Positions 8,407 to 57,496 of a stretch of 64,000 nucleotides of DNA are shown one piece after another (position 1 is the stretch's first letter; every line of letters begins with the position of its first letter). A program made the translations under genes and the position numbers. The notes under the pieces are model-generated. The model was not told the origin of the DNA, made no database searches, and saw nothing but the letters and a program-made list of their open reading frames with translations. The stretch is taken from the NCBI GenBank assembly GCA_033763455.1, contig JANRKO010000006.1, positions 64,001-128,000 on the forward strand. The letters run 5' to 3'. Source of the stretch: Polyangiaceae bacterium (GTDB lineage Bacteria; Myxococcota_A; Polyangia; Polyangiales; Polyangiaceae).

Positions 8407-9183
8407 TTAGGCGTCACAGACTTCGAAATTTCTCCGCAGCGCTTCTAGCTCCAGCACTTTGGGCCGAAATTCGTGACCCACGTACCCCGCGTAATGGGTG
8501 CGTGCGATGGCCTTGCAGATCCCCCGGTAGTTGAGCTCTTGTTCGTCGTCGAGGTCTCGCCGCTCTGGGTTGCCAGCGGTGTGAAAGTGCCCGATGTGCT
8601 GAATGTGTTGCTCGATCTTGCGGATCACATCCCCCTCCATGATTTGCACATGGTAGATGTCAAATAGCATCTTCACCATCGGGCTTCCCGTGAGCTCAAG
8701 CACTCGAACCGTCGCGGCCACGCTGTCGCATTCGTAACCTGGGTGGTCCACTTTGCTGTTGAGAACCTCTAAGTTTAGGTTCACTCCCAGCTCCTCGGCA
8801 AGCGGCGCAACTTTCCTCAGGATTTTCGCGGAAGCCTGAGCAGCTGCTTCAGGGCCCTGCCCCGCCAGCCGATTCCCACTCAGGCAAATCAGGCCGCGGA
8901 CCCCCGTGCGTGCGGCGGCATGTAGGCTTTCGGTGAGTTCGGCCTCAATGCGAGTGTGCTCGCGTTCATCGTTAGTGCCGCGTTCAAGATTTCCGTGGCC
9001 GCTCATGCTGGCGATAGTTAATTCGTGGCGGCGCGCTGTTTCTACCACTTCCTCGAAGTCAGCTCCTCGATCCCACAACTCAATGGCCCTATATCCAACC
9101 CTTTGCGCGTAGCCGAAGAGCTCCGAGAGTGAGCTGCCAATCGGCTGAAATACGGGGTAACAGAAGGACTGTTGAATGCGCAT
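8407..9183 (-). CDS. Hydroxypyruvate isomerase / xylose-isomerase-like TIM-barrel protein
   Basis: LEVLNSKVDHPGY, MLFDIYHVQIMEGD, HFHTAGNP.R, ELNY, GYVGHEF are Hyi-family motifs. Confidence 0.85.
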   Translation of the reverse strand: MRIQQSFCYPVFQPIGSSLSELFGYAQRVGYRAIELWDRGADFEEVVETARRHELTIASMSGHGNLERGTNDEREHTRIEAELTESLHAAARTGVRGLICLSGNRLAGQGPEAAAQASAKILRKVAPLAEELGVNLNLEVLNSKVDHPGYECDSVAATVRVLELTGSPMVKMLFDIYHVQIMEGDVIRKIEQHIQHIGHFHTAGNPERRDLDDEQELNYRGICKAIARTHYAGYVGHEFRPKVLELEALRRNFEVCDA

Positions 9184-9254
9184 GGAATAGCCGGAGAACT
9201 CCGCTCACGCTGGGTTCTCAAAGGGCAGTATTCCGAATGGGGGGCGTGTTGCCC

Positions 9255-9291
9255 ATGGAACAACTTCGGAGGGTTTTGTGCTTTGTTAAGA
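9255..9291 (-). promoter_or_regulatory. Putative AraC operator upstream of the Hyi-like gene
   Basis: Minus strand reads TCTTAA-N6-ACAAA-N8-AAG-N6-CAT, the same pattern and spacing as 10534-10570 on the other side of the AraC gene. Confidence 0.6.
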
Positions 9292-9656: not shown

Positions 9657-10463
9657 TCAACCCTCTCGTGCGCGCTTCCTTAGCGTATTCGGGCTCACCC
9701 CCACATGCTTCTTGAATTGCTTGGAAAACTGAAAAATGTCTTCGTAGCCCACGCGCCGCCCCACTTCACTGATGCTCAGGTTCTGATCTTGGAGGAGATA
9801 TTCGGCTCGCTGCATGCGTTGCCGAATTACAAGCTCGATGGGGCTTACCCCAAAGTATCGACGAAAGGCGCTGCACAAATATTGAGGTGTGAGGGCCGCG
9901 CGCTCCGCCAAGTCTGCCAAGCGGATGGTTTCTTCGCTGTGGGTTTCGATGTAATTCTTGATCTTGAGCAAGCGTTCGGGTGGCTGCCAAGCGGTTGAAG
10001 TGGCCTCGCGGCGACGGCGTACTTCGCACAAGTAGCTCTCTAGACAGTTGAGGGCGATGACCGGATCTGGTGCGAAGGGCCCGGTTAGCTCTCGATAAAG
10101 TGCGAGAAAATAGTGCTCCGCGACTGCGGGATCCGCATCCGCAATAGGCTCCCCAAGCGGCAAGCGCTGGGCTCGCAAGATGGGAGCGATGGCTGTGCCG
10201 TTGCAGTGAATCCACGTGTGGCGCCAGCGCCGCTCTCGGTTTCCGTAGAAGTGTGCGTGCTCAGGCCCCCATAGGATGAGCGTACGCGGGGGGTGGATGT
10301 TACCGGGCCTATCGAGCTCCACGCGCTCGTAGAACAACATGAAAAGGTAGTCATTGGTGCCGTTGGGACGGTGCACAATCTCCGCACGTAGTGCTTCCTG
10401 AACGCCCATGGCTCCGATCGAAATCTCCGGTGTGTTCAGGGGTTTAGAGAAGATGGTTTTCAT
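9657..10463 (-). CDS. AraC-family transcriptional regulator (#1)
   Basis: Cupin-type N-terminus (WRHTWIHC) and C-terminal double HTH (LADLAERAALTPQYL...LSISEVGRRVGYEDIFQFSKQFKKHVGVSP). Confidence 0.95.
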   Translation of the reverse strand: MKTIFSKPLNTPEISIGAMGVQEALRAEIVHRPNGTNDYLFMLFYERVELDRPGNIHPPRTLILWGPEHAHFYGNRERRWRHTWIHCNGTAIAPILRAQRLPLGEPIADADPAVAEHYFLALYRELTGPFAPDPVIALNCLESYLCEVRRRREATSTAWQPPERLLKIKNYIETHSEETIRLADLAERAALTPQYLCSAFRRYFGVSPIELVIRQRMQRAEYLLQDQNLSISEVGRRVGYEDIFQFSKQFKKHVGVSPNTLRKRAREG

Positions 10464-10570: not shown

Positions 10571-10637
10571 ACCCTCACCACGCTTGGTGTGCGACCTTTA
10601 GAGGACTTCAGAATTGCTGAAGTTAAGGAGTCGCCGT

Positions 10638-11627
10638 ATGACGCGAGTGCTCGGTCGTGGTCTGTTTGTGGTTGTTTGTCCTTTAATTCTAGGCCATTGC
10701 GTATCCGAGGCAGCTGCGCCACGCGAGGTAAGCCAGGCCGGAGGTGCACCGAGCAGCGGCGGAGCTTCGGCAGGTGGGAGTCCCCCAAGGGTGAATGGTG
10801 TTGTTGGGGCCACTGGCGGCTCGCAACTCAGCAATTCTGGCGGCGGAGGCCCGCTTGCCTCCATGGGTGGTAGGCCCACTGTTCCAAGCGGCGGCACCAC
10901 ATCCGCTACAACCGGCGGGTCTTCCCCGAGTTTGCAGGGGGGAAGCGCGGGGGCCACCGGGACTCAGATGAACCCTGATGGAAGCCTCACGCCCAAGTCC
11001 AAGTTCTCCCTATTCAACGGTGTAGCTCTTACGGGTTGGTCCGCTGACGTACCAGATAAGGAAACAGATCCAACGCTCCCAGACAGTTTCATCGTAAAAA
11101 ATGGCCTCCTTGTGAGCCAAGGTACCGCGATCGGCCACCTGCTCACGGACGCTACCTACAGGGACTATCGCTTGGAGGTGGAGTACAGATTCTCTGCGGG
11201 TGAGGGGAATTGCGGGGTTCTGATCCACGCCTCCGAGTTGCGGGCTCTTTACGGGGCCTTTCCGAAGTCGATTGAGGTTCAACTATTCAGCGGGGATGCG
11301 GGAGATTTTTGGTGCATTCAGGAAAACATCGAGGTGCCCAATATGGATGCGCGTAGGCCCCACGATCCTGGGCAAGCTTACGGTGGGGGCGAGGCGGACG
11401 CGCGACGCATTCTCAATCTAACGGACGACTCGGAGAAGCCAGTGGGTGAATGGAACACAATCGTGATCGAAGCCAGGGCTCGCGGCATCACGGTTTGGAT
11501 GAATGGAGAACTAGTGAACGATGGCTTTAACTGCACCGCCGATCACGGCAAGATCGCGCTTCAAGCGGAAGGGGCGGAGGTTGAATTCAGGCGAGTGGAG
11601 ATTGGCCCACTTTCCGCGACACCCTGA
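10638..11627 (+). CDS. DUF1080 (3-keto-glycoside lyase/hydratase-like) lipoprotein
   Basis: AAGGAG RBS before ATG 10638; lipobox ILGHC; Gly-rich linker. DUF1080 motifs SLFNG..LTGW, YRDYRLEVEYRF, GNCGV, SIEVQL, EKPVGEWN, GKIALQAEG..VEFR. Confidence 0.88.
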   Translation: MTRVLGRGLFVVVCPLILGHCVSEAAAPREVSQAGGAPSSGGASAGGSPPRVNGVVGATGGSQLSNSGGGGPLASMGGRPTVPSGGTTSATTGGSSPSLQGGSAGATGTQMNPDGSLTPKSKFSLFNGVALTGWSADVPDKETDPTLPDSFIVKNGLLVSQGTAIGHLLTDATYRDYRLEVEYRFSAGEGNCGVLIHASELRALYGAFPKSIEVQLFSGDAGDFWCIQENIEVPNMDARRPHDPGQAYGGGEADARRILNLTDDSEKPVGEWNTIVIEARARGITVWMNGELVNDGFNCTADHGKIALQAEGAEVEFRRVEIGPLSATP

Positions 11628-11638
11628 AAGGAACACCG

Positions 11639-13398
11639 ATGAATAGCCGTGCTTATCATTCCCTAGCTAAGCTAAGCGTTACATTCGGGTTATTAGCCGC
11701 CTCTGGCTGCCAGCCAAGCGTTTCTCGCGAAACCCACAGTGGCGCGTCAATGACCACCACTGGCGCCACGCCCGGCAGCAACGCCTCGGGGGGACTCCGA
11801 GCACACCAGATCCCGTTTCGGCAACGGGTGGAGGCGTTTCCCCGAGTGCCACCGCCACAGTTGATGCGCTCACTCCAGCGAACCTCTCGTGTCCCGCGGG
11901 GGCCCCGATAGCGCCTGCCCCGCGGCGAATCTTGCGTCTAGCGTCGTCTGAGTGGCTTGCCTCGATCAAAGCTGTGGCTCCTTTTGAGCCAACGAGTGTC
12001 CCTCCGGGTTTTGATAGCTCTGTGTTGGGCGAGGCGCCCCAAGCCTCGGATGCGGTGTCCAAAGATTGGCACCAAACGGTGGATCAGATTGCTCAGGCGA
12101 GCGCCAAGCTACTTGCCGAGGCACCTTTGGGGCTCGCGTGTCCGATCACTGAATTCGGTAGAGATGTTGCCTGCACTCAAAGCTACCTCACAGAGCAAGC
12201 TCTACGGTACCTGCGAGGGCGCGCGAACCCGAATGATGTGGATAGGCTCCTGCAATTGGCAACGGCAGTTCAAGGACGATCAGGGGGAGCCGCGGCACTC
12301 AAGGTTGCGGTCAGAGCGATGGCCCTATCTCCGAAGTTCATTTACCTCACCGAGGGGCTCGACCGCTCTCTGCCAGCCACAACTCCCGCCCGTATGAGCG
12401 TTGAAGAACTGGCTTCGTTTCTTGCCTTCCGAATTGGCAGGCGTCCGCCGTCCACACTGCTGTTGCAGGTGCTGGCTCAGGCGCCGGCTCTTGATAATGC
12501 GCAGTTGAGTGCCATTATCGAGCAAGAATTCACGCCTGCCGAGCGAGCACAGAGCACCACTGATTTTCTCGCAGCTTGGCTCAACGTTGCGGCGCTCTCT
12601 GGGAGCGTCTCAAAAGATCTCTCAATCCACCCCCAATTCACCTCAGAATTCCTACTTCAACTTCAGCGGGAAACCTACGACACGCTTCATGCGCAGTTCG
12701 TCGCGCCTGGCAACGGTGATCTGAAGCAGTTGCTCACTGAAAATGTTGAATCAACGTTGCTCGATGATAAACGCAATCCCTTGGTGCAAACCTACAAGCG
12801 CCCTGGCGTTCTTGCGTTACCGGGATTCATCGCGTCCATTTCTTCCCCGCAACACACCGGCTTGCCAAAGCGCGGGAAGTTCCTGGTAAACGCCTTTTTC
12901 TGCGACGGGGCTCAACCACCACCTGCAGGCATCAAAAAGCCTGACTTTCCACCGGGCCTATCCGAACGGCAGCAGTTTGAAATGATCGAACAGCTGCCTG
13001 GCTGTGGCCCATGCCACACACGGATCAATCCTCTGGCCTACCCATTCGAACGCTACGACGAAGTGGGTAATCCCCGTGCCGCTGATGCGGCCATGAATGT
13101 GATTGATACGAGCGGTGCTCATGCGCTAACGAGCGGGGGCCCCCGTGACTTCGTTTACTCTGATCTTCAGGATCTAGGGGTTCAGATGTCTGGCAATAGC
13201 GTGGTGCAGACGTGCCTCAGCATTCAAGCGTTCGAATACACTGCGCGCCGAACGGCAGCTTCCCCATACACGGTGGGGCGCAACGATAGCTGTGCGGTGT
13301 CGTCGATAAAGGAGGCGGGAGCCTTGAGTGGTTTTCAACTCACGGGCCTTCTGCGTGATGCTCTCATCGCAAACGCGCTCGCGCCAAGAGCGGATTGA
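11639..13398 (+). pseudogene. DUF1592-family heme-c lipoprotein (#1), split by a -1 frameshift in a G6 run
   Basis: ORF 11639 supplies the lipobox (LAASGC). Adding one G to GGGGGG at 11788-11793 joins it in frame (SGGTPSTPDP...PRRILRLASSEW) to ORF 11932-13398, which has SPKFIY, KRGKF...C, CGPCH, INPLAYPFERYD. Confidence 0.8.
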
Positions 13399-13412
13399 TA
13401 GGGAGAAACAGT

Positions 13413-14759
13413 ATGTTGATTAAGACAACGCGTAGGAGATTCCTTGGTGCCCTGGGCACGGCGACGTTTGCGGCCTCGACTCTTCGCTTTTTCCTCAAAA
13501 CCGCCGAGGCTCAGACCTACCCAAAACGCTTCGTGTTCGTCTTTACGCCGAACGGCGCCGACGGCATGGCAGCGAGCTCTGGCCTTGGGAAGGATTACGT
13601 GCTGGGTCCAGACATGAGCATCTTCAACGAGCTTAAGCACAAGTTCACCGTGCTGGATGGTCTGCAGATCCCCGATCACGGCGGAGAAGAACATCCTGCG
13701 GGTCGCTGCTCAATGCTGAGCTCTTGGCGCTCATCCGGCACTCAGTCAACAGCGGGGAACCGGGGGCAGTCTTTCGATATCTTTCTCAGGGCTAAGCTCC
13801 CTGGAGTTAATGGAAATTCGATCTACACAGGTACCGAAGGGTTAGACGATACCCTGGAGCTTCCGATCAGTTGGCTCAGCGCAGGGGTGCGCAATGACAG
13901 TTATCTGCAGGGCCTCGGACCGCTCATTGGTCGAGTTTTTCAAAATGCGCCCGTGGTGCCTTCACCTATGGCGACAAACTCGGCGATGAGTGCAGCCACG
14001 GCAGATGAGCTTGCGCTCAATGATTACTTGAGGGGAGAGGTGGAACGGCTACGCGCGGAGGCTCCCTTGGCCGAATTCGCAAAGCTGGACCTCCATTTGC
14101 AGGCGCTCAGTCAGCTACGGGCGGGGCTCGTGCCCGCCTCTGGCGATCCGGGAACTGCCCTTCGCATGTGCGATTCGAACCCAACCTTCACGGGGGACGT
14201 CGCGGATCAAATGGGGCTCGCTTTGGCACATGGGCTTGCGTGTGGGCAAACGCGGGTGGCCGTTTTCCGCATCGGCTCTTACGAGCCGAACCACGTGCAC
14301 AGCCATTGGGAGGAGGGCGGTATGGACGGCGTGAACGGGTTCCGCGATGAATTTAGGCGGATCAACCGCGGGTGGGCGCAAAACATCCTCAACTTCTTAA
14401 AAGCACTCGATTCGTTCCCTGAAGGCAACGGCACATTGCTCGACAACACCGCCGTGGTGTGGAGCAGCGAGCTTTCGAACCATTACCGCTCCGAATCTTA
14501 CCTGCGGAATTATCCCAACTGGGCCTACCCAGCAAAAGCTGGTGACGTAAACACTCATGGCACGGTGGATATGCCATTTTGGCTTGCTGGAAGCTTAGGC
14601 GGCACGCTCAAACAAGGCGAACGCATCGTGGCACAAGATAGGTACGCCGGCGAGCTCTACAAAGCCATCGCTACGGCCATGGGCGTAAGCAGCACGGATC
14701 TTTCGAGCTACGGAGAGCCTGCGTTTGCTCCTGGGATTTTGCAGGAGATATTGGCTTAG
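13413..14759 (+). CDS. DUF1552-family Tat-exported protein (#1)
   Basis: TRRRFL Tat motif, KRFVFVFTPNG, KLDLHLQALSQL, LACGQTRVA, HVHSH, GTLLDNT..VWSSE. Confidence 0.88.
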   Translation: MLIKTTRRRFLGALGTATFAASTLRFFLKTAEAQTYPKRFVFVFTPNGADGMAASSGLGKDYVLGPDMSIFNELKHKFTVLDGLQIPDHGGEEHPAGRCSMLSSWRSSGTQSTAGNRGQSFDIFLRAKLPGVNGNSIYTGTEGLDDTLELPISWLSAGVRNDSYLQGLGPLIGRVFQNAPVVPSPMATNSAMSAATADELALNDYLRGEVERLRAEAPLAEFAKLDLHLQALSQLRAGLVPASGDPGTALRMCDSNPTFTGDVADQMGLALAHGLACGQTRVAVFRIGSYEPNHVHSHWEEGGMDGVNGFRDEFRRINRGWAQNILNFLKALDSFPEGNGTLLDNTAVVWSSELSNHYRSESYLRNYPNWAYPAKAGDVNTHGTVDMPFWLAGSLGGTLKQGERIVAQDRYAGELYKAIATAMGVSSTDLSSYGEPAFAPGILQEILA

Positions 14760-14927: not shown

Positions 14928-15953
14928 TCAAAGGGAGGGCGCGGCGCAGACGCCAAACCCCACGATATCCGTCCCGGCCGCATTAGCCGCGCATACACTG
15001 AAGTAGTTCATCCCGTCGCACCCACACACGCTGGCGGCGATAGGAGCTCTAATGGCCGGACCCTGCACGCCCGAGCCGCTCACCGGGCACACCTGCGGCC
15101 GTTTCTTGCAAACGCCTGCCGGGGAAGGGGAAAGGCACGACGCATTGTCGTCGAAATCACAGAACTCATCGTCGAGGCACCCAGCGCCCTGTACGCCGCC
15201 GCAAGGCTTGGCTGGACATGCTATTTCGGTGCACGCCACCGCGCCACCAGCACACGAGCAGGTGTTACAGCCATCAGGCGCAGGAATGTTGGTAGTGCCG
15301 TCGGCATAGACTTGACCCCCAATGGTGCACGTGCCAGCCGCCTGACACTCACCCTTAGTGCTGAAGCCCGTACCTGCAGCCGCAGCAACGCAGTCGTTGG
15401 AATAGGTCTTCCCATCGCACCCGCACACTGGATCAAAGATGTCAGCGCATACCTGCGGACGCTTAGCGCACACCGCCGAGGCGTCGGCTGCCCCGCACAG
15501 GCCCGTGCCCGCGTAGGCACAATACTCGTCCGTTGCACAGGTTGCTCCGGCGAACCCGCCGCACACGACTGCCACGCACGCTTTCAAGGTGCATGCGACC
15601 GCACCATCGTGACAACTACAGGTATTGCAGCCATCCTCTGAGGGGAAGCTGCTGCCATGTGGGTATTCCCGGTTGCCCACCGTGCAGTTCTTTGCAGAGC
15701 CCGAACCTCCAGAGGCAAAGCCTCCCCCGGTCGCCTGAGCGCCGCCCGTACTGCTCATTCCTCCGCTGCTGGTTCCTCCACCGGTCTTTGCCCCACCCAA
15801 AGGCCCCGCGCCCCCTGTAACGGCGACCGAGCCTCCGGAACCCCCCGCCCCCTCGGGCGTTACCGCTTCGAACGAGCCGCCACAGGCCACGAGCCCGCCA
15901 CAGGCAATCAGAAACAGAAAGACACGACCTGGCAAACGCGAAGGGGTAAACAT
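14928..15953 (-). CDS. Lipoprotein with two pacifastin-like and two Kazal-type protease-inhibitor domains
   Basis: Lipobox LVAC. Pacifastin patterns DGCNTCSCHDGAVACTLKAC and DGCNTCSCAGGAVACTEIAC. Kazal patterns CADIFDPVCGCDGKTYSNDC and VCGCDGMNYFSVC. Confidence 0.85.
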   Translation of the reverse strand: MFTPSRLPGRVFLFLIACGGLVACGGSFEAVTPEGAGGSGGSVAVTGGAGPLGGAKTGGGTSSGGMSSTGGAQATGGGFASGGSGSAKNCTVGNREYPHGSSFPSEDGCNTCSCHDGAVACTLKACVAVVCGGFAGATCATDEYCAYAGTGLCGAADASAVCAKRPQVCADIFDPVCGCDGKTYSNDCVAAAAGTGFSTKGECQAAGTCTIGGQVYADGTTNIPAPDGCNTCSCAGGAVACTEIACPAKPCGGVQGAGCLDDEFCDFDDNASCLSPSPAGVCKKRPQVCPVSGSGVQGPAIRAPIAASVCGCDGMNYFSVCAANAAGTDIVGFGVCAAPSL

Positions 15954-16210: not shown

Positions 16211-17101
16211 CTACTGTGCGGGGCTCACTTCAAGCACATCTAGTTGGACGAATTGCCCATCGAATACCTGAGGTGCTGGCGGGATGCCTGGCACCACTAG
16301 GCTCACGTTCGCGGATTGCTCCGTGTTATCGTCCTTGAAATTGAACGTGACGACAGAGCCCCCTTTGACCAGGATGGTTGCTTCGTAATCAAGCACAAAT
16401 AGCTGATGATCCACGGAGCCGCTCACCGTGTAGTAAGCGTTCAAGTAGTACTTCTCTGCAGGGGTCGGCACGTCGATCCAGAACAGCGCATGAGCGTCCT
16501 CGTTAGGTGTGCCTCCGCTGCTATCCAAGAAGTATGGCGCCGCAGTTTCCGTTGCTATCGTCTCGCCGTTGGCATCATTGAAGGTGTGAGCCTCGGTGAC
16601 ACCACGGACCCTTAGCTTCACCTGATACGTGAGCTCCGGGTTACCACCTACCGACAGCATCTGTGGCGGAAGGCTCTGCGCGGAGCTGCAAAGGTCGCCC
16701 TCGTGCGCACCTTGGCACGGTACCTCTATGCGCGTATTCAACGCTTGAGCGATGGATGCCCCGGCAACCCCGCTGGCGCCGCCCAATGATGCCGCTCCCC
16801 CCGAACCTGACGTGCCTCCGCTCGCGGGCAGGCCGCCTCCGGTTCCTGCTCCACCCAAGCCGACGTTACCCCCAGTTCCCCCAGTTCCCCCAGCTCCCCC
16901 GGAACGATCTGCTGACTGGCCACCCGAAGCCGGAACCATCGCGCCTTTGCCCCCCGCAGCGGTGGGGCCTCCAGGCTGTGCTGAAGGTACCATTCCCCCA
17001 CTACCCCCCGACAATGCCGAAGAAGACCGTACTTCGCCGTCGGAGCTGCAGCCTACAACGGCACCAAGAAGAAAGCAGAGCGCGGCCCATTTGTTTAACA
17101 T
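16211..17101 (-). CDS. Lipoprotein of unknown function, third gene of DUF1592-DUF1552 operon #2
   Basis: Likely start MLNKWAALCFLLGAVVGC (lipobox) at 17101, 32 bp after the DUF1552 stop. Gly-rich linker then a beta-rich domain (YQVKLRVRGVTE...FDGQFVQLDV). Confidence 0.8.
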   Translation of the reverse strand: MLNKWAALCFLLGAVVGCSSDGEVRSSSALSGGSGGMVPSAQPGGPTAAGGKGAMVPASGGQSADRSGGAGGTGGTGGNVGLGGAGTGGGLPASGGTSGSGGAASLGGASGVAGASIAQALNTRIEVPCQGAHEGDLCSSAQSLPPQMLSVGGNPELTYQVKLRVRGVTEAHTFNDANGETIATETAAPYFLDSSGGTPNEDAHALFWIDVPTPAEKYYLNAYYTVSGSVDHQLFVLDYEATILVKGGSVVTFNFKDDNTEQSANVSLVVPGIPPAPQVFDGQFVQLDVLEVSPAQ

Positions 17102-17133: not shown

Positions 17134-18558
17134 TCAAACGAGGATACCTGGAAGTGGGCCTGTGCCGAATTCGGAGCTGCCGAAGCTGGTTGCGGGGACG
17201 CCGAATGCGTTCAACAAGGTAACGTGGAGCTTGTTGTGCGGCTGGCTGCCAAACGCCAAGTGTTGCCCGGTTTTGATTTTTCCTCCTGCGGTACCGAATA
17301 GGAAAGCTCGAATGTCGGTATAGGTGTGGCTTGAGGCGTAGGAGACTTCGGAACACCAGAGGGCCAAAGAATTGTCGAGGAGTGTAGCCCCGCCCTCATT
17401 GACCGAATCCATCTTTCCCAAAAGGTACGCCACTTCCCCGGCATACCAGCGATTGATCCACGCCATTTGTGCGTCGGACTGAGCATCACCGCCGCGATGT
17501 GAAATCGAGTGGTGATCTTGCGTGATCGTCCCGCAGCCGGAGCACCCCGTAGGATCGATCCACTCCAGGCGTTCAACCGAGCGGGCGTAGGAGTATTGGA
17601 GCGACGCCACTCGGGTGAGATTGCACGAAAGGGCGAGCACCATGAGGTCCGCCTGCTGGCGACCCACGACGGGGAAATTAGAGTGCAGATTGTGATCAGC
17701 AATCGGAGTAAAGCTGGTTGCTTGGTCACAAGAAACAGGCAGACCGTTCGCCTCGGCCGCCAGGCGCCGCTCTACCTCACGGATCATCGTTAGATGTTGA
17801 TCGAGCCTCGCCTTGTCGCTGGCCGGGACCGTGGCGTTCACGGTCTCGAACTCCTTGATCACAAAGTCGATGACGCTCTTGCGGCGAGCCAGGTTGGTGT
17901 TCAGCATCCCCGGAGGGGTTGTGGGTCCGCTCAAGTTGCTGAAGAGGCGGTTGTAAGCCGCGAGTGGGCTATCTTCTGGAGGGACTGGCGCGAGTGGGCC
18001 CGCGTAGCTCATTCGGCTAAAGGGGTGGTTGCCAAATCGCACTGAGGTTTGCACGCCAAAACCCAGCGATTTGTAAGGGCTAGCGCCGCCGATCTGGTTA
18101 GCCAACTCCTGATCCACGGATATCCCGTTGGCAAACCCCACGGGGTAATCCGGCGCTACCCCGGGCTCAGGATCGGCAACGGGCAAGGTCGGATCCACAG
18201 AAAAGACCTGACCGGTTAACATGTGACCCATACCAACAGAATGCTGATCCCCAACATCGCCCTCCGCTGCGCTAACCATGTCCACCCCACTCAAAGCCAA
18301 TAGCTTGTTTTTGAAGGGCAAGACTGGCGCCGATTCAATGCCCAAGGTGAAATTCGCGCCGTCCCCCTGGGGCATGAATTGACTCAGGTTGTTGGAGCCG
18401 TTGGGTGTGAATAGAACCAAGAACCGCGACTCGGGATTGGCGGCCCTTGCGGCACGTGGCGCAAAGGCCTCCAGGAAGGGCAACCCCACCGCGATGCCGC
18501 CGGCAGCAGCGAGAAATCGACGGCGCGCTAATGAGCTGGTTTTTGTGTTCGTTGGCAT
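17134..18558 (-). CDS. DUF1552-family Tat-exported protein (#2)
   Basis: ARRRFL Tat motif, LPFLEA, RFLVLFTPNG, ISVDQ, RRKSVID, RLDQHLTMIREVERRL, LSCNLTRVASL, HHSISH, TLLDNS. Confidence 0.92.
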   Translation of the reverse strand: MPTNTKTSSLARRRFLAAAGGIAVGLPFLEAFAPRAARAANPESRFLVLFTPNGSNNLSQFMPQGDGANFTLGIESAPVLPFKNKLLALSGVDMVSAAEGDVGDQHSVGMGHMLTGQVFSVDPTLPVADPEPGVAPDYPVGFANGISVDQELANQIGGASPYKSLGFGVQTSVRFGNHPFSRMSYAGPLAPVPPEDSPLAAYNRLFSNLSGPTTPPGMLNTNLARRKSVIDFVIKEFETVNATVPASDKARLDQHLTMIREVERRLAAEANGLPVSCDQATSFTPIADHNLHSNFPVVGRQQADLMVLALSCNLTRVASLQYSYARSVERLEWIDPTGCSGCGTITQDHHSISHRGGDAQSDAQMAWINRWYAGEVAYLLGKMDSVNEGGATLLDNSLALWCSEVSYASSHTYTDIRAFLFGTAGGKIKTGQHLAFGSQPHNKLHVTLLNAFGVPATSFGSSEFGTGPLPGILV

Positions 18559-18571: not shown

Positions 18572-20353
18572 CTAGGGCACTTTGCGATAGAGAAAAGTAT
18601 CCGTCTGTGTGAGCGCTACTAGAAGGTCGCGGATGTCGCCCTTGGAATTGGCGAAGGTAGCTCGGAGCTGTTCCATGGCGCAGGCGTCTTCCTGAGCTTC
18701 CACCCGGCCATAGGCAAAGTGAAACCACCTGGTAGCGGCACAGTCACTCACCACGCGACTTGTCCCTAGCTTTGCACCGAGCTCCACCGCGCCAACGAAC
18801 GGCCCGTCGACATCGGTGTCGGTGAGCATTCCAGTCGCGTCGATAGGCTTTCCAGCTTCTTCGGTGCGCCACCGACCGACGGCGTCATAATGCTCCATAC
18901 CGAGGCCAATGGGATCGAGCTTCTGGTGGCACTGCGCGCACGCCGCATTGCTGGTGTGAGCAGCAAAGCGTTCTCGCGTCGTGAGCGCCGGGTCAAACGC
19001 GGGCACCATGATGTTGAGGTTGGTAGGGGGCGGGGAAGGCGTCTGGCAAAGAATGCTATCGCGGACAAAGAAGCCGCGCGTCACCGGGTTACCTTGCGTG
19101 GGGGTGGAGTGCCCAGCTAAGAGGCCCGCAAGGGTTAAGAGGCCCGACCTCTGAGTTGGTGGCTGCGACACCGCAACCAATGCGGTTGTGGAACCGGGTG
19201 CGCTCAGCCCATAGAACGCCGCCAAGGCATCATTCATGAACGAGTCGGGAGATTGAAGCAGTGCGGATAAGGTGCCCGCGCCGTCGAATACCGTGCGCTC
19301 CACGAAGGTATTGGCTTCCTCCCGCATCAACTGGGCAACCTCTGGTGTGAAGTCCGGAAAGAGCGTTGCATCCTTGGTGAGCTGCCCCATTGCCATGAAA
19401 TCCAACCACTGCGAGTGAAAGCTCACCACGTTGGATCGAGCCTTGGGGTTTTGAACAAGCCGCCGAGCTTGCGCCGCCACTTGCTCTTTGGTGGCCAGCT
19501 CCCCCCGTGCCGCGGCTCCGAGAAGCTCAGCATCCGGAGAACTCTGCGTGAGAGTGTACGAAAGGCGCGTAGCGCGCTCATACGGGCCGACCTCCACTAC
19601 GCCGGGTGCAGCCGGAAGCGCGGGGCCCGCGGTTTCCTGGAGTTCCATGCGGTACAGGAACTGCGGCGTCTGCAGGATAGCTGCGACCAGCATTGGAACC
19701 GCCTGAGCGAATCCGTAACTTGCCTTGGCCCCTTGGTAGAAAGCCCAATACCGGGCCTTTTCGGCCGGCGGGAGCGGGCGCCGAAAACTCTTCAACCCAA
19801 ACGAATTCAAGAACTGGTCCGCGCAAGCATCTTCTCCTGCGGTCGCAGGGTCACATCCGAGCAAGGCCGGCAGATCCTGACCCGCTGTTCCCGCCAGCAG
19901 AGTGGCCGCCGACTCGTATTGCTCAGCCAGTACCTGGCTTACGGAGCGAACAGTCGCGTTATTGTCGAATTGGTGGGCTCTCTCCTCCAAAGGGAACGCC
20001 CGAGCTGGTTTGGTGGTGATGCCAAGGATGGCCTCGACGGTGTTGTCGTACTCGGTATGGTTCAGCCTCCGAAGTGGCGCTGCTCCCGGCGAAACAAGCG
20101 TTGGGTTTAGGCACGGACCCACCGCGCCCCCGCCGCCCGCCGACGTTGCCCCACTACTCACAAGGCCGGCGCCGCCCGATGCAGAGCTGTCCCCGGACCC
20201 GAGCGCAGCCCCGCCGCTCCCAGTGGATACGCCAGTGTTGGTAACCGACGACGGACCGGCGCTCCGCTGCGCGGAGGTCGAGCATCCGACAAATGCCAAC
20301 GCTGCGCTGAGCATGAGCCCGCCTGACTTCAAGCCTGGAGGTCCTAGACGCAT
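18572..20353 (-). CDS. DUF1592/DUF1588-family heme-c lipoprotein (#2)
   Basis: Lipobox FVGC, Gly linker, LRRLNHTEYDNTV, PQFLYR, ATRLSY, RSGLLT, PVTRG, CAQCH, DPIGLGMEHYDAVGRWR. Confidence 0.92.
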   Translation of the reverse strand: MRLGPPGLKSGGLMLSAALAFVGCSTSAQRSAGPSSVTNTGVSTGSGGAALGSGDSSASGGAGLVSSGATSAGGGGAVGPCLNPTLVSPGAAPLRRLNHTEYDNTVEAILGITTKPARAFPLEERAHQFDNNATVRSVSQVLAEQYESAATLLAGTAGQDLPALLGCDPATAGEDACADQFLNSFGLKSFRRPLPPAEKARYWAFYQGAKASYGFAQAVPMLVAAILQTPQFLYRMELQETAGPALPAAPGVVEVGPYERATRLSYTLTQSSPDAELLGAAARGELATKEQVAAQARRLVQNPKARSNVVSFHSQWLDFMAMGQLTKDATLFPDFTPEVAQLMREEANTFVERTVFDGAGTLSALLQSPDSFMNDALAAFYGLSAPGSTTALVAVSQPPTQRSGLLTLAGLLAGHSTPTQGNPVTRGFFVRDSILCQTPSPPPTNLNIMVPAFDPALTTRERFAAHTSNAACAQCHQKLDPIGLGMEHYDAVGRWRTEEAGKPIDATGMLTDTDVDGPFVGAVELGAKLGTSRVVSDCAATRWFHFAYGRVEAQEDACAMEQLRATFANSKGDIRDLLVALTQTDTFLYRKVP

Positions 20354-20489
20354 AGATCGATCCTCTCGCTCCGTTTGCCACATCCGGTGCCGGTCACAGC
20401 CCGAGCCCAACTTTGGCTTTGAGCAGTAGGTGACCACCGACAGCCGGTAGCCAAAGCAAGGATGACAGACATGAACTTAGTTGTCAGCG

Positions 20490-52200: not shown

Positions 52201-52953
52201 CTACCAGCTCCGTACCTCACCAAGAAGCAGGCGTCGCCGGGCGTCTCCCTGCTCGATCATCTCGCGCACCAAGGGGCCATCGAACGTCTCCCGTGGCTTC
52301 ATCCAGGCGTTTTGATAACACATCAGGCACACGCGCCGATCAACCGTGCTCGTGTTGTTACCGCGGCGGTGCCAGAGCCAACCGTCGAATAACACCGCTT
52401 GGCCCGGGCTTGCGTAGACGGCCACTTCATTCGGTAGTGCGGGGTGGCCATCTGGCGCGGCGCGGTTCATACGGTGGCTTCCCGGGAGCACGCGAATGGG
52501 GCCGGTTTGTTCGGTCAAAGGATCTAGGTAGTAACCGCAGTTGATTTGGCCGGGCAAAGAGCCGTACGGCGTGCCCTCGGGGTCCATCGGCCACGGCCCA
52601 TCACGGTGCCACTTCTGATCCGGCGCACCTGGGCGAGCGATCTGCGCGCAGGCGCTGTGAAGCTGTATGCAGGTACCAAGGATCGCTTCGATTCGACGGA
52701 TCACCGGTTCATTGTCGAGCAAGAAGTGGAAACGTCGATCGACATCCAAAAGTTGTTGACGCAGCGCTTCAACGCCTACGTTTGCGAGATCAAAGACTGA
52801 CGAGAATGCACCGCGTAGCGTTTCAACCTGCTCGGGTGTCAGAGCGTTATCGATGACTAGGTAACCGTGCTTACAAAAGAAGTCCACATCGCGTTGCATT
52901 GCTGCGTCGCGCTTCACGTTGAGTTGGGTGGGCACGATGTTCTGCTCATACAT
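52201..52953 (-). CDS. Phytanoyl-CoA dioxygenase (PhyH) family Fe(II)/2OG enzyme
   Basis: GYLVIDNAL, WHRD, G.IRVLPGSH, PG.AVLFD..LWH..G.N.S..DR. Start set at MYEQ (52953). Confidence 0.9.
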   Translation of the reverse strand: MYEQNIVPTQLNVKRDAAMQRDVDFFCKHGYLVIDNALTPEQVETLRGAFSSVFDLANVGVEALRQQLLDVDRRFHFLLDNEPVIRRIEAILGTCIQLHSACAQIARPGAPDQKWHRDGPWPMDPEGTPYGSLPGQINCGYYLDPLTEQTGPIRVLPGSHRMNRAAPDGHPALPNEVAVYASPGQAVLFDGWLWHRRGNNTSTVDRRVCLMCYQNAWMKPRETFDGPLVREMIEQGDARRRLLLGEVRSW

Positions 52954-53011
52954 GAGGGTTGTATATCCTGTTGGGGTGGAATGCTCAGTGTGCGATGGAT
53001 TTGTTGCGGGT

Positions 53012-53050
53012 TCTTGTACTCCTCTGCATAAAGGATTGTATATTCTTGCG
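53012..53050 (-). promoter_or_regulatory. Putative AraC operator upstream of the PhyH gene
   Basis: Minus strand CGCAAGAataTACAAtccTTTAtgcagaggagTACAAGA has the same pattern as 54043-54081, followed 19 nt later by a -10-like CACACT. Confidence 0.7.
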
Positions 53051-53101
53051 GGTCCTGAGTGCTTGAAATTGCACCCCTTCGTGTCACACTGGTAAGCACC
53101 C

Positions 53102-54016
53102 ATGCCTCCCTCGCAGCACCCCGCGTCTGAGTACCATTGGACGGTTGCTGAGCTGTTTGGGTCGAGCAGCATTCCTGTGTTGGTGTTAACGCATCGGGAT
53201 TATAGCGTTGGAAGCCATACACATGAGTTTCTAGAGCTCAATCTGATTACTTCGGGCAGCGGTTGGCATGAGCTCTCCGAAGGTCGCATGCGCGTTCAAA
53301 CGCACGATGTGTTTGTCATTCCTTCTGGTGTTGTGCACGCATATGGTAGCGATCAAGGTCTGGATGTGTTGCACATTCTGTTGCGCCCTGGGTTCTTGCT
53401 GGAGCATCAAGCAGAGTTCTTGGCTCTCCCCGGGTTTGATCTGCTGTTTACGGTGGAGCCCGCGTTTCGTTCCAGCGTCGGCTCCCGCTACAGCCTGCGC
53501 TTGGAGCCGAAGGACACTGCACGGGTGTTAGCTCTCTGCAAGTCGATCGAAGAGGAGCAGCAGAGGGAGCCCTCTCCACACCGTGACATGATCATCGGTG
53601 GCCTAGGCTTGAGCCTGATAGGCCTACTTTGTCGCTGTTACATGGCCCAGCACGCTGGCATGCTGCAGAAGCGCGGCGTTACGGACGTTCGCGCCCTGGC
53701 CATTCACGATACCGTGCAGTTCATGAGTCAACACGTGGGCGAAGCCTTGAGTTCGGCGGCACTCGCCGAGAGGGCTCGGATGAGCCCTTCTGCGTACAGT
53801 CGGCTATTTCACCGGATTATTGGCGTCACACCGAGCGATTACCTGGCGCGTTTGCGAATACAACGCGCTCGCCAGCTCCTCACGACCAGTGATATGCCAC
53901 TTACAGCTATCGCTTTGGGCACCGGCTTTTACGATGCTGCACACTTTACGCGAACGTTTGGGCGGCTAGTGGGGTGCACCCCTGGGCAATATCGCAAGCG
54001 CTTTGCGCAGGCATGA
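53102..54016 (+). CDS. AraC-family transcriptional regulator (#3), RhaR/RhaS-like architecture
   Basis: HTHEFLEL..I.SG.G.H cupin; C-terminal HTH ...LTAIALGTGFYDAAHFTRTF...GCTPGQYR. Confidence 0.95.
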   Translation: MPPSQHPASEYHWTVAELFGSSSIPVLVLTHRDYSVGSHTHEFLELNLITSGSGWHELSEGRMRVQTHDVFVIPSGVVHAYGSDQGLDVLHILLRPGFLLEHQAEFLALPGFDLLFTVEPAFRSSVGSRYSLRLEPKDTARVLALCKSIEEEQQREPSPHRDMIIGGLGLSLIGLLCRCYMAQHAGMLQKRGVTDVRALAIHDTVQFMSQHVGEALSSAALAERARMSPSAYSRLFHRIIGVTPSDYLARLRIQRARQLLTTSDMPLTAIALGTGFYDAAHFTRTFGRLVGCTPGQYRKRFAQA

Positions 54017-54042
54017 ATAGGTCCCGCTTGGGGTCACGAGGG

Positions 54043-54214: not shown

Positions 54215-56059
54215 ATGCGGTCATTGGCTCCGAAGGCATCGTTGGGGTGGGCGGAAAACGCGAAAAAGGCGCGAATTTCATATTGGCTTCTGGGTAGCGC
54301 TCTGGCCTTGGGCTGCACGGCGAACGTGCCCGAAGGGAGGCCGCATTCAACTGCTGCGGATCCCAATGGGAGCGGCGCTACAGGCTCTGGCCCGCTTGGC
54401 GGTGGAGCGGGCCCCAGCGGAGCCGGTGGGTCGACGTCGGGTTCGGGTGGGTCTGTCACTGGCCCTGTGGGAACCGGTGGCAGTATTGTTATCCCCGAAA
54501 ATTGTAACTCGCCTGTGGCTCCGCGCGCCCCCATGAGGCGCCTCAGTCGCTTCGAATACACGAATACGATGCGCGACCTTGTGGGCGATACCACCTCACC
54601 GGGTAACGATCTGGCGGCGGAGGATCTTGGTAACGGCTTCAGCAACGACGCCGATACGCAGACTGTGTCCTCCTTGCTCGCGGGACAATACGTCGATGTG
54701 GCCGCCGGCATTGCAACACGAGCGATGGCGCCGGGTGGCGCGATCTCAAAGTTGAACGCCTGCGCTACCAGCGTGCCTGCGAATACAGCTGCCGAAACGG
54801 ACTGTTTTAACGCTGTAATCCCGCCTTTGGCTACCGGCGCGTACCGTCGCCCCTTGGCTGCGGGTGAGGCGGAGGAGTTGCTCGCGCTGTTCCAAACGCT
54901 GCGCAACAACGGTAGCGATTTTGCGAGCAGCCTGACGGGCGTGGTGCAAGCCTTGCTGCTCACTCCAGACTTTCTCTACCGCCCGGAGTTTGGCGTACCA
55001 GTCCCTGGCCAAGCCAACTTGTTACGCCCAACTGGGTACGAAATGGCGACGCGCCTTTCGTATTTGTACTTCGGCAGTATGCCGGATGCGGAGCTGGCTG
55101 CAGCCGCTGCGCGGGGAGAGCTGGACACGGCCGATGGTGTGTTGGCTCGCGCCACGGCAATGGTGAATGACCCCATGGGCCGCGCCGCCACAAACGTGGG
55201 CTTCTTCTTTGATAATCTGTTGCCGATAGCTCGTGTCGGGTTTCTCTCGCGGGATGCAGCGACATTCCCGACGTATTCGACCAAGATCGGCTTGCTGATG
55301 CGGCAAGAAACGCAAGCCTTTGTTAAAGGCGTGATCTTTCAGGAAAACGGCACGCTCGACAACATTTATACCGCGCCCTACACCTACGTGAACGACGAGT
55401 TGGCAGCGTTCTACGGAATAGCTGGGGTCACGGGAAGTGAGTTTCGCCAAGTACCGCTCCCGGATACTACCAAACGTTTGGGGCTCCTTACCCAAGGAGC
55501 CGTGCTCATGGGGCCCATCGCTACCAACGTGACGAGCCCGGTTGCGCGCGGTGGTTTTCTCACCCACAAGCTGCTCTGCCAGGAAATTCCCAAGCCGAGT
55601 GCGGCCATCTTGGCGATGATCAAGCCCCCCGATCCGTACTCGGCGCCCACGGCCCGTGAGCGCTTTGCCCTGCACTCAAAAGATCCCGGTTGCGCTGGTT
55701 GTCACCAGTTGATGGACCCAGCGGGCCTTGCCCTTGAGAATTTCGATGCCGTGGGTATGTGGCGAGATCAGGAAAACGGCGTCACCATCGACGCTTCGGG
55801 TACGTTGGCCGTACTCGGCGCCCCTTTCAACGGCCCCGTGGAGCTGGCTCAGCGTACCAACGCAGCTATGGAATCCAAGACGTGTTTTTCGAAGCAGTGG
55901 ATGAATTTTGCTTACGGTCGCACGCTGAACGCAGCCGATAAGTGCACCCAGGAAGCCGTTCAAAGCAAGTTCACCGAGGCCGGCAGCAATGTGAAGGCTT
56001 TGCTCACGGCGCTGGCCCAATCGGATGCGTTTCTCTACCTCAACGCGGTGAAGGAGTAA
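54215..56059 (+). CDS. DUF1592/DUF1588-family heme-c lipoprotein (#4)
   Basis: Lipobox ALGC, MRRLSRFEYTNT, PDFLYRPE, ATRLSY, RLGLLTQ, SPVARG, CAGCH, DPAGLALENFDAVGMWR. Confidence 0.92.
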   Translation: MRSLAPKASLGWAENAKKARISYWLLGSALALGCTANVPEGRPHSTAADPNGSGATGSGPLGGGAGPSGAGGSTSGSGGSVTGPVGTGGSIVIPENCNSPVAPRAPMRRLSRFEYTNTMRDLVGDTTSPGNDLAAEDLGNGFSNDADTQTVSSLLAGQYVDVAAGIATRAMAPGGAISKLNACATSVPANTAAETDCFNAVIPPLATGAYRRPLAAGEAEELLALFQTLRNNGSDFASSLTGVVQALLLTPDFLYRPEFGVPVPGQANLLRPTGYEMATRLSYLYFGSMPDAELAAAAARGELDTADGVLARATAMVNDPMGRAATNVGFFFDNLLPIARVGFLSRDAATFPTYSTKIGLLMRQETQAFVKGVIFQENGTLDNIYTAPYTYVNDELAAFYGIAGVTGSEFRQVPLPDTTKRLGLLTQGAVLMGPIATNVTSPVARGGFLTHKLLCQEIPKPSAAILAMIKPPDPYSAPTARERFALHSKDPGCAGCHQLMDPAGLALENFDAVGMWRDQENGVTIDASGTLAVLGAPFNGPVELAQRTNAAMESKTCFSKQWMNFAYGRTLNAADKCTQEAVQSKFTEAGSNVKALLTALAQSDAFLYLNAVKE

Positions 56060-56065
56060 TCAGGT

Positions 56066-57496
56066 ATGTCATCAATCCGATTGAGCCGAAGAGCCATGAT
56101 TCGTGGTGCGGGTAGCATTGCGATTGCCCTGCCGTGGCTTGAGATCATGGAAACTCCGAAGGCAGTTGCTCAAGCCGCATCGGCTGCCAAAAGGTACCTT
56201 CAAGTTTATACTCCCGGTGGCTGCCAACAGTTGCCCATCAACGGTTCCCAACGCTACTGGCCAAGTGGCACCGAGACGGCGCCTGTGTTGAGCCCCATCT
56301 TGGGTCCTCTTCTGCCGGTAGCCTCCAAGCTGTTGACCATTCGTGGCCTCGAGATGAAATGCGCAAACAGTGGAGAGGCCCCCCCGCACCAAACAGGTTC
56401 GGTGGGCCTATTCAGTGGCGCAACATGGGACGGCGGAGCAACGTTTTCGAGGTTGGCCTCGATCGATCAGGTGATCGCCGGCCGGATCTCCACGGGAAAG
56501 AAGAAGAAGAGCCTTCAGCTCGGAATTCGTTGGGGCACAGGTCAATTCAACGGGGCCGTTTCGACGGGAAATACCATGTCTTTCGAGGATGGCCCCGGCA
56601 CAGCTCCCATTCCTCCTAGTATTGATCCGGTGGCCATTTACTCCGATCTATTCGGCACCCTTACGCCCAGCGTGACGCCCACGATGGGGCAGCCTGATCC
56701 GAGCATTGCGCGCAAGAAGTCCATCTTAGACTTTACGGATAAGAAATTTGTTTCGTTGGGCGCCAAGCTGGGGCCCTCTGATAAGGCCAAGCTCGATCAG
56801 CATCTCGAAAAGATTCGCGAGATAGAAAAAAGCTTGGATGTGATGGTTACAGCGAGTGCCACGTGCCACGCGCCCACCAAGGTGGATACTAGCAAGTACG
56901 ATCCAACTGCGGGGCTCTACGCGGAGATGGACAACGCCGCACTTGATAATGGTACCGATGGCATGATTCCGACGGTTGGCAAATACATGACTGATATGAT
57001 GGTCATGGCGTTGGCTTGCGACATCACAGCGGTTGGCCATTTGCAGTGGTCAGACAGTGAATGCCAGCATTCGCTTCCCTACCTGAATCTTCTCCAGCAC
57101 CATCATTACTACCAGCACGAAAATGGCTATGCACCGGCAGAAATCGAACAGATCGGCATGTGGTATAGCCAGCAACACCTATACCTCTTGCAACAAATGA
57201 TGAGCGTGGACATGGGCGGGCATTCACTACTCGACGAAAGCTTGGTATTTTTTGGTTCAGAAATTGGGTGGCCCGAAAGCCACTCGCAAGACAACATTCC
57301 GATTATGCTCGCTGGTGGCGCCGGCATCCGTACGGGGCGGCACCTTGATTTCAGGAAAAACAAGGCGAACGATAGTGACCCAGGCATACCCCATAACAAC
57401 CTCCTGGTGAGCATTCTGAACCTGTTCGGTGATGCAAGGACGAGCTACCAGGAGCCCGGTAAAAGCCTCTGCAACGATCCGATCTCACTCACATAG
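56066..57496 (+). CDS. DUF1552-family Tat-exported protein (#4)
   Basis: SRRAMIRG...LPWLE.M, SIDQ, RKKSILD, KLDQHLEKIREIE, LACDIT.V, HHHYYQH, SLLDES, HNNLLV. Confidence 0.92.
   Translation: MSSIRLSRRAMIRGAGSIAIALPWLEIMETPKAVAQAASAAKRYLQVYTPGGCQQLPINGSQRYWPSGTETAPVLSPILGPLLPVASKLLTIRGLEMKCANSGEAPPHQTGSVGLFSGATWDGGATFSRLASIDQVIAGRISTGKKKKSLQLGIRWGTGQFNGAVSTGNTMSFEDGPGTAPIPPSIDPVAIYSDLFGTLTPSVTPTMGQPDPSIARKKSILDFTDKKFVSLGAKLGPSDKAKLDQHLEKIREIEKSLDVMVTASATCHAPTKVDTSKYDPTAGLYAEMDNAALDNGTDGMIPTVGKYMTDMMVMALACDITAVGHLQWSDSECQHSLPYLNLLQHHHYYQHENGYAPAEIEQIGMWYSQQHLYLLQQMMSVDMGGHSLLDESLVFFGSEIGWPESHSQDNIPIMLAGGAGIRTGRHLDFRKNKANDSDPGIPHNNLLVSILNLFGDARTSYQEPGKSLCNDPISLT

Follow-up and report, generated by a model that had tools for sequence, protein, structure and literature searches.

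DUF1552 and the domains found beside it were reportedly first named by Studholme et al. in 2004, and DUF1552, a large and widespread family, has been a problem ever since. The closest description of such genes as a pair is that of He et al. (2017, mSphere, PMC5615132). In the available part of that paper, 'Group III' planctomycete-specific cytochrome genes (PSCyt3 with PSD4, often also with PSD2, PSD3 and PSD5) adjoin DUF1552 genes, the function of the pair is given as unknown and a link to carbohydrate use is suggested. Here, four such DUF1592/DUF1552 gene pairs (A to D) were analyzed in a 64-kb stretch of DNA, below called the window (positions 64,001 to 128,000 of contig JANRKO010000006.1, assembly GCA_033763455.1), from a Polyangiaceae bacterium with a 6.56-Mb genome in 92 contigs that is 93.7% complete. 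In all four pairs PSCyt3 and PSD4 occur in one protein and a DUF1552 gene is adjacent. The pairs resemble Group III, as described in that part of the paper, in architecture, gene order, the location of CxxCH in PSCyt3 and high copy number, and differ from it in the myxobacterial host, the single-CxxCH lipoprotein, about 80 copies and the adjacency of AraC genes to a third of the pairs. An earlier examination of the window by its letters alone (the sequence-only reading) had called the system undescribed. This proved too strong, as both the PSCyt3-DUF1552 pairing and the suggested carbohydrate role can be found in the accessible text of He et al. (2017). The pair itself is already known and its function unexplained; new here are the lipoprotein with a single haem motif, the growth of the family to about 80 pairs in a genus of Polyangiales and a strong but labile coupling to AraC-type regulators. 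Full-text literature searches on these families gave no report of the AraC link or of the myxobacterial expansion.

A second comparable system consists of the DUF1501 and PSCyt1/PSCyt2/PSD1 modules of Planctomycetes and Verrucomicrobia, for which electron transfer to specific acceptors was proposed in the portion available of Kamneva et al. (2012, PMC3542564). There too a Tat-motif (twin-arginine translocation) protein lies beside a multi-domain protein with cytochrome motifs, in many diverged copies. The families are different, and the present genome has 3 DUF1501 matches vs 83 for DUF1552. A DUF1552 protein also occurs in a gene table of the transcriptional stress-response study of Wecker et al. 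(2009), as far as the available part of that study goes.

The modules are interpreted here as two-gene operons that would encode exported two-subunit metalloenzymes, substrate-specific and partly inducible, and a probability of about 0.45 is given to this interpretation. The first product would be exported by the general secretory (Sec) pathway and lipid-anchored, an all-helical protein of the order PSD3-PSD5-PSD4-PSCyt3-PSD2 with one haem c motif. The second would be a Tat-exported protein of the alkaline-phosphatase/sulfatase superfamily, which has lost the sulfatase nucleophile motif and kept a His/Asp cluster of probable metal-binding type. The genus would have built about 80 to 90 old paralogues, the pair duplicating and diverging as a unit, and roughly a third of the pairs would have gained a ligand-sensing neighbour, either a classical AraC, an XylR-like AraC, an extracytoplasmic function (ECF) sigma factor with FecR, or LacI. 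Specific small molecules, including some sugars, would probably induce such regulator-linked pairs along with the adjacent catabolic genes. Haem and metal would both be bound, the chemistry would be catalytic (hydrolytic or redox-coupled) and the substrates may be carbohydrate-derived.

The gene pair as one genetic unit

Genes were predicted with an own gene caller, which gave 4993 genes, and pair genes were found with in-house profiles. A called pair was defined as strictly adjacent, same-strand DUF1592-type and DUF1552 genes, and 63 were obtained genome-wide. The sequence-only reading had proposed a conserved two-gene core, and this was borne out: the DUF1592-type gene lay directly upstream of DUF1552 in the 63 called pairs, and the gene order was identical in 17/17 loci from other genomes, several phyla among them. 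The intergenic gap was -4 bp in 23/63 pairs and no more than 51 bp in 61/63. The identity matrices of the two partners were correlated with r=0.78, which none of 2000 permutations reached (highest permuted r 0.16). This correlation indicates that both genes duplicate together, and the sequences mark the pair as a unit in both duplication and divergence. Co-duplication is compatible with a physical complex, of which it is no proof, and the DUF1592-type and DUF1552 proteins may form one. Exactly one CxxCH was present in 59/63 called pairs, and the twin-arginine (RR) motif in 62/63.

The genome contains 83 Pfam matches to PF07586 (DUF1552) and 80 to PF07631 (DUF1592), corresponding to about 80 pairs, and the pair genes take up 3.7% of its DNA. 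At about 80 pairs per 6.56 Mb, some 0.8 would be expected in 64 kb, and the four found in the window are therefore a local concentration of a family that is very abundant. The pairs are packed most densely elsewhere, on contig C45, where about 40 kb contain nine called pairs (including C45:77997-96932). A ThuA gene there overlaps the pair that follows it at its start, with CBM_6 and Laminin_G_3 proteins close by. A first look gave 86 candidates in this genome, 91-98 in three genomes of the same genus and at most 27 in the other 27 relatives. Among the 30 relatives compared, the expansion to about 80 pairs is common only to the bacterium's own genus. The median identity between paralogues within the genome was 25% for DUF1552 and 29% for the DUF1592-type proteins. 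By their sequences the paralogues are old, and at such low identity each pair probably handles its own substrate.

The DUF1552 family as a whole is large: clustered at 50% identity it gave 28,647 clusters at E<=0.001 and 17,957 at the stricter E<=1e-10. Its members occur in Myxococcota, Planctomycetota, Verrucomicrobiota, Acidobacteriota, Bacteroidota and Proteobacteria. For the DUF1552 protein of pair B the nearest named relatives were from Polyangiales/Polyangiaceae metagenome-assembled genomes (74% identity). Farther relatives, at 27-33% identity, came from Planctomycetota, Verrucomicrobiae, Acidobacteriaceae, Bacteroidota and Proteobacteria.

Pfam scans of long open frames in the window returned the four pairs previously proposed, each with the DUF1592-type gene first and DUF1552 second on the same strand. 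The motifs ascribed to them were also found. Each of the four DUF1592-type proteins has one CxxCH, located inside PSCyt3, besides a lipobox and a Gly-rich linker, and each of the four DUF1552 proteins has a twin-arginine motif. All five domains, PSD3 (DUF1587), PSD5 (DUF1595), PSD4 (DUF1592), PSCyt3 (DUF1588) and PSD2 (DUF1585), were matched in B, C and D. Only PSCyt3, PSD4 and PSD5 were matched in pair A, which has diverged furthest. In pair A the frame of the lipobox (ATG at 11639) differs from that of the gene body (open from 11671), with a break near 11787. Contigs from two public runs (depth about 3, one study) have one extra G behind 11787 that joins the two frames, which points to an assembly error or a variant as the probable source of the break.

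Two DUF1552 remnants had also been claimed. One was found, on the forward strand at 25957-26793; no second one was detected at E<=1 when the window was translated in six frames. PA14 lipoproteins, which are not DUF1552, are encoded at 27131-28084 and 28197-29297. These two forward-strand genes are tandem paralogues with a Gly-rich linker and a C-terminal PA14 domain, located between the DUF1552-PA14 remnant and module C. In a same-genus genome a PA14 protein (L100:2381-3154) follows the orthologue of pair A.

Predicted properties of the two proteins

The DUF1552 protein of pair B was modelled from an alignment of 60 paralogues, with a predicted local distance difference test (pLDDT) score of 87 and a predicted template modelling (pTM) score of 0.81. 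In a Foldseek search sulfatases ranked at the top with a probability of 1.0, at TM scores of only 0.3-0.4. VIA-align gave Z 17.4 to iduronate-2-sulfatase (5fql_A; root mean square deviation 3.7 Å over 271 residues), Z of about 16 to nucleotide pyrophosphatases/phosphodiesterases (NPPs), phosphonate monoester hydrolases (PMH), PafA and MCR-1, and Z>=8 for 475/943 chains. By these fold scores DUF1552 is, as modelled, a distant member of the alkaline-phosphatase/sulfatase superfamily. The likeness to type I sulfatases and other hydrolases of the superfamily (NPP, PMH, PafA, MCR-1/EptA) lies in the core fold, at Z 16-17, and in the C-terminal stretch 'LDN..V....SE...G..H', which was aligned by hhalign with the metal-binding 'DHG' of the five sulfatase-domain proteins of the genome at 44% probability. 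Unlike type I sulfatases, DUF1552 has no C/S-x-P-x-R motif, is only about 10% identical, has a His-rich site and is accompanied by an obligatory partner gene with a haem motif. The formylglycine motif [CS]xPxR was found within residues 41-200 of only 4/72 DUF1552 paralogues, and the Pfam Sulfatase domain (PF00884) had no match among the window proteins. The conserved C312 (C-D-L-T-R) was considered as a formylglycine site and set aside, since it precedes a late strand and not the first helix, and its motif lacks Pro.

The His cluster noted by the sequence-only reading is real. Among 87 DUF1552 sequences, drawn from several phyla, all have D149, H354 and H411, and at least 90% keep H106, D231, E263, C312, R316, H350 and D395. 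By this conservation the His/Asp cluster (H106, D149, D231, H350, H354, D395 and H411) most likely binds metal. The RR motif was present in 60/60 aligned paralogue rows and in at least 90% of the 87 sequences, with a hydrophobic stretch following it, and the genome has one TatC match. By its motif DUF1552 is a Tat substrate, with export predicted.

For the DUF1592-type protein of pair B an all-helical model was obtained (pLDDT 90.3, pTM 0.88), and an ESM Atlas search with this protein returned its own family only. The CxxCH residues C503/H504 were found in 60/60 aligned paralogues, and three Cytochrom_C_asm matches show cytochrome c maturation genes to be present in the genome. The invariant CxxCH points to haem binding. 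The lipobox Cys column is kept in 57/60 aligned paralogues (relaxed regular expression 57/60; strict regular expression 33/63), and the protein is classed as a predicted lipoprotein on that basis. A weak likeness to phycobilisome (PBS) linkers was noted for residues ~126-303 (model residues 70-247; VIA-align Z 5.9), and, independently, a profile of the PSD2 region had its best match among PDB sequences in the ApcE linker repeats (E 0.025); both lie below the trusted level.

AraC-type neighbours and competing explanations

The sequence-only reading had described local, swappable AraC regulators and proposed that the neighbourhoods of the pairs be tested for enrichment. Neighbours were taken as the 201 genes within two genes of called pairs. 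AraC genes accounted for 20/201 neighbours, compared with 48/4993 genes genome-wide (1.9 expected, p=3e-16). All 20 were confirmed by Pfam, and five are XylR-like (Peripla_BP_3 with HTH_18). Other regulators among the neighbours were four ECF sigma factors, two of them with FecR, and one LacI. An AraC gene was located within three genes of 23/63 pairs; random adjacent gene pairs gave a mean of 3.06 and a maximum of 12 (10000 draws). Conversely, 31/48 of the AraC genes of the genome lie within three genes of a pair gene. Immediate adjacency was seen in 19/24 placements, most commonly upstream of DUF1592 (nine divergent, three on the same strand). For comparison, 20 control blocks of 10 kb each were drawn at random, with a distance of 8 kb or more to every pair gene; AraC made up 2 of their 140 genes (Fisher p=0.0013). 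AraC enrichment beside the pairs is thus confirmed in this genome, and the swappable character of the regulators agrees with their failure to diverge together with the pairs (see below). Clustering of the 201 neighbours by BLAST also bore out their diversity, with AraC as one large family and all others in groups of one or two. The AraC genes may be presumed to control their neighbouring pairs. RNA evidence was sought among the public runs that contain the sequence; those listed included no RNA run and were DNA with sediment or soil metagenome labels, most of them sharing only a small part of it.

The AraC-type neighbours offer a route to what the pairs do, two thirds of the AraC genes of this genome being located beside them. 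With ligand-sensing regulators in this position a practical handle is available, since an inducer identified for a single regulator of AraC or XylR-like type would point to a candidate substrate of the adjoining pair.

Several results weigh against the metalloenzyme interpretation. For the proteins, a DUF1552 profile found no significant solved relative among PDB sequences (best sulfatase E 0.15). In the DUF1552 B model H106 is located at the start of a helix following a strand, the place of the nucleophiles in this superfamily. H106 would then occupy the nucleophile position, as far as secondary structure alone can tell, and the pattern H-x8-[TS]G was present in only 28/72 DUF1552 proteins. 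For the whole DUF1592-type B model Foldseek found nothing in the PDB at E<=0.001 and no cytochrome c fold, and the best VIA-align score, Z 5.9 to phycobilisome linker domains, is at noise level for helical proteins. Candidates for a sixth haem ligand are few: no Met column reached 60%, and only H494 was found, in 47/60 paralogues. In the neighbourhoods, 40/63 pairs have no AraC within three genes, and about 60% have no adjacent regulator. AraC identity and pair identity were uncorrelated (r=0.05 and 0.01), and outside this lineage AraC was found within 6 kb at 1/17 loci. Many neighbours are housekeeping genes, among them RecA, RNase III, TGT, PurM/N and PEP (phosphoenolpyruvate) carboxylase. 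Duplication of AraC and pair as one module was rejected on the uncorrelated identity matrices, a comparison of low power at about 20% AraC identity.

In a rival explanation AraC genes, catabolic genes and pairs all gather in a flexible part of the genome and are neighbours by habitat rather than function. The AraC proteins would then control the cargo, and the pairs would perform an unrelated task such as general periplasmic redox or the scavenging of phosphorus or sulfur bound in esters, in line with the DUF1552 fold, which is that of phospho- and sulfo-ester hydrolases. The history of module A is of this kind. Its trio of Hyi-like, AraC and DUF1080 genes was found in five same-genus loci at 70-78% protein identity (one member missing in two), the Hyi-like orthologues beside this AraC being 76-78% identical. 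In four of the five no pair is present, and the fifth carries an orthologue of pair B (74%), not of pair A. The AraC of module A may therefore chiefly serve the Hyi-like and DUF1080 genes rather than the pair. In three of the four loci without a pair (L096, L097 and L099) a 359-aa open reading frame (ORF) takes its place; the ORF of L096, the one scanned with Pfam, is of FAD (flavin adenine dinucleotide) amine-oxidase type. Pair B has three contexts in three genomes: in a sister species its orthologue adjoins a different AraC, and no AraC lies within 6 kb of the other named orthologue in Polyangiaceae. On the DUF1552 tree AraC adjacency changed at least 14 times, compared with 18.1 for shuffled labels (13/500 shuffles reached 14 or fewer). 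From this lability and the missing co-divergence the regulator is seen to be lineage-specific and often exchanged, and the AraC coupling is strong but labile. Habitat alone would hardly place two thirds of the AraC genes at pair loci when same-genome controls hold so few. Furthermore, most placements are immediately next to the pair, the nine upstream divergent ones being in the usual place of an AraC beside its target, and AraC and pair are direct neighbours in modules B and D. A shared habitat is judged unlikely, with a chance that is still considerable.

A more far-reaching form of the metalloenzyme interpretation would make the pairs modular, substrate-specific, redox-coupled periplasmic enzymes of a new catalytic class in the alkaline-phosphatase superfamily. 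A His/Asp metal centre would replace the Ser, Thr or formylglycine nucleophile, and electrons would be taken up or given off via the tethered mono-haem partner. The pairs would then be the main inducible catabolic toolkit of the genus, each wired to its own small-molecule sensor, in the place that polysaccharide utilization loci (PULs) have in Bacteroidota. So complete a scheme is speculative and appears quite unlikely.

The sequence-only reading had favoured a PUL-like system organized like loci anchored by SusC/SusD. In its full form the lipoprotein would capture a polymer at the cell surface, DUF1552 would process or oxidize it, and AraC and cargo would complete a substrate-specific locus. 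The pairs do share with SusC/SusD PULs a recurrent, conserved core pair, variable enzymes as neighbours, a local sensor or regulator and many paralogous loci, and the ECF sigma/FecR genes at two loci and XylR-like sensors at five are reminiscent of PUL regulation. Glycan-active neighbours occur at some loci (GH38, GH31, GH4, pectate-lyase-like, CBM_6, Laminin_G_3, SASA), and a DUF1592 protein of Cellvibrio that bears CBM2 is tabulated among those of a lignocellulose-degrading community in the accessible part of Alessi et al. (2018, PMC6004670). The core pair differs from a PUL in lacking a TonB-dependent transporter or SusD-like protein and looks enzyme-like, not like a transporter. Among the 201 neighbours one TonB-dependent receptor and no SusD-like family were found, and the window modules have neither. 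No ankyrin family was found among the 201 neighbours at the thresholds used. Neighbours of carbohydrate type (author's own classing, Pfam E<=1e-8) numbered 18/201 vs 5/140 in the controls, an excess of carbohydrate-active enzyme type that is not significant (odds ratio 2.7, p=0.077). The 18 comprise DUF1080 (two), GH4, GH31, GH38, GH77, alpha-amylase, SASA, Laminin_G_3 (two), CBM_6, PA14, two pectate-lyase-like proteins, ThuA, a Cip1-like lyase, a gluconolactonase and a BNR protein. Tight linkage to a pair on its own strand was seen for DUF1080, Laminin_G_3, the Cip1-like lyase, the BNR protein and ThuA, the last of which overlaps the pair that follows; GDSL is also among the tightly linked neighbours of glycan or 3-keto-sugar type. 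The window cargo (Hyi-like, ADP-ribosylglycohydrolase, PhyH) lacks signal peptides and does not consist of polysaccharide enzymes, and by Pfam no carbohydrate-binding module is fused to the four DUF1592-type proteins. Only a slim chance is left for a true PUL equivalent, and 'PUL-like' fits as a loose analogy, limited to core pair, local regulator and variable neighbours.

Least probable of all is that the proteins are not enzymes and serve as structural or sensory envelope proteins, with a structural metal or a ligand in the His/Asp site and an expansion by which a social predator would have diversified its recognition of prey, kin or surfaces: the extreme divergence of the paralogues (median 25-29% identity), the lipid anchor with its flexible Gly-rich linker, the want of a known catalytic motif ([CS]xPxR in 4/72) and a helical partner that matches no enzyme-like fold would suit such a role, but the few conserved polar residues are of the metal-binding kind and D149, H354 and H411 are invariant across phyla, Tat export usually accompanies cofactor-loaded enzymes, and the family is also common in non-predatory phyla.

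Window features and further observations

The coordinates of the modules are given in Table 1. An AraC gene near three of the pairs (A, B and D) had been reported for the window and was recovered with Pfam, and the cargo named for each of the four modules was confirmed by Pfam and inspection of N-termini.

Table 1. Coordinates, strands and supporting matches of the pairs, regulators, cargo genes and remnants in the window
Feature	Position	Strand	Evidence
AP_endonuc_2, xylose-isomerase-like TIM barrel ('Hyi-like'), module A cargo	8407-9183	-	Pfam E 2.7e-29; no signal peptide
AraC regulator A, divergent from DUF1080/pair A operon	9657-10463	-	HTH_18 4e-21, AraC_binding 4e-5
Exported (predicted) DUF1080/3keto-disac_hyd protein, upstream of pair A	10614-11627	+	Pfam 4.9e-35; hydrophobic leader, Gly-rich linker
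Pair A, DUF1592-type predicted lipoprotein	11639..13398; body open frame 11932-13398	+	PSCyt3/PSD4/PSD5, lipobox, CxxCH
Pair A, Tat-motif DUF1552	13395-14759	+	HXXSHH 3.8e-17; in-house profile 5.7e-90; TRRRFL; 4-bp overlap with upstream gene
Module B predicted lipoprotein, downstream of pair B	16211-17101	-	lipobox LGAVVGC; no Pfam match
Pair B, Tat-motif DUF1552	17134-18558	-	HXXSHH 1.3e-70; modelled fold
Pair B, DUF1592-type mono-CxxCH predicted lipoprotein	18572-20353; longest open frame 18572-20437	-	five domains; lipobox; CAQCH
AraC regulator B, divergent; gap of 121 bp to longest open frame of pair B	20559-21491	+	HTH_18 9.4e-20
DUF1552 remnant fused to PA14 domain	25957-26793	+	profile positions 81-219 of 450
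AraC helix-turn-helix remnant, 51 aa, opposite DUF1552 remnant	25995-26147	-	in-house AraC profile E 9e-6
ADP_ribosyl_GH, module C cargo, 137 bp upstream of pair C	29369-30850	+	Pfam 4.8e-33; no signal peptide
Pair C, DUF1592-type mono-CxxCH predicted lipoprotein	31048-32841; open frame 30988-32841	+	Pfam, motifs
Pair C, Tat-motif DUF1552	32878-34296	+	HXXSHH 2.5e-42; RRSLI
PhyH-family dioxygenase, module D cargo, divergent from AraC D	52201-53172	-	Pfam 6.6e-21; no signal peptide
AraC regulator D, 198 bp upstream of pair D and on its strand	53102-54016	+	HTH_18 2.1e-25, AraC_binding 2.1e-13
Pair D, DUF1592-type mono-CxxCH predicted lipoprotein	54215-56059	+	Pfam, motifs
Pair D, Tat-motif DUF1552	56066-57496	+	HXXSHH 5.6e-60; SRRAMI

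Further genes of the window were noted around the modules. Upstream of module A, a 1385-aa protein on the reverse strand (1768-5925) combines Peptidase_C25 (gingipain family) with Laminin_G_3 and adjoins a Laminin_G_3/DUF2341 protein (3-1607, reverse strand). These are followed on the forward strand by a radical SAM/SPASM protein (6120-7691) and a 172-aa ORF without a Pfam match (7710-8228), just upstream of module A; by its family the radical SAM/SPASM protein could be a candidate peptide- or protein-modifying maturase. Between pairs A and B a lipoprotein (14928-15953, reverse strand) has a Gly-rich linker and Cys-rich modules resembling Pacifastin, Kazal, VWC and RECK-FnI, which are protease-inhibitor domains of animal type. 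Beside the AraC and DUF1552 remnants lie a molybdopterin oxidoreductase without Tat leader (22941-25007, reverse strand) and a flavin mononucleotide (FMN) reductase (25349-26068, reverse strand). Directly downstream of pair D, on the opposite strand (57668-59251, reverse), a fusion of protoglobin with a methyl-accepting chemotaxis protein (a globin-coupled chemotaxis sensor) is encoded.

Two genes outside the window were also observed near pairs. On contig C84 a rifampin ADP-ribosyltransferase of the Arr-ms family (L047:1987-2451, forward strand; E 1.4e-49) is located 1.4 kb downstream of a pair on the opposite strand and probably has no connection with it. Among myxobacteria, Haliangium ochraceum is known to have a eukaryote-like actin. 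In the present genome a 386-aa gene (C19:60077-61237; L013:1-1161, reverse strand) matches eukaryote-type Actin (PF00022) end to end with E 2.4e-148. Its contig is bacterial and 243 kb long, and the gene lies two genes away from a DUF1592/DUF1552 pair.

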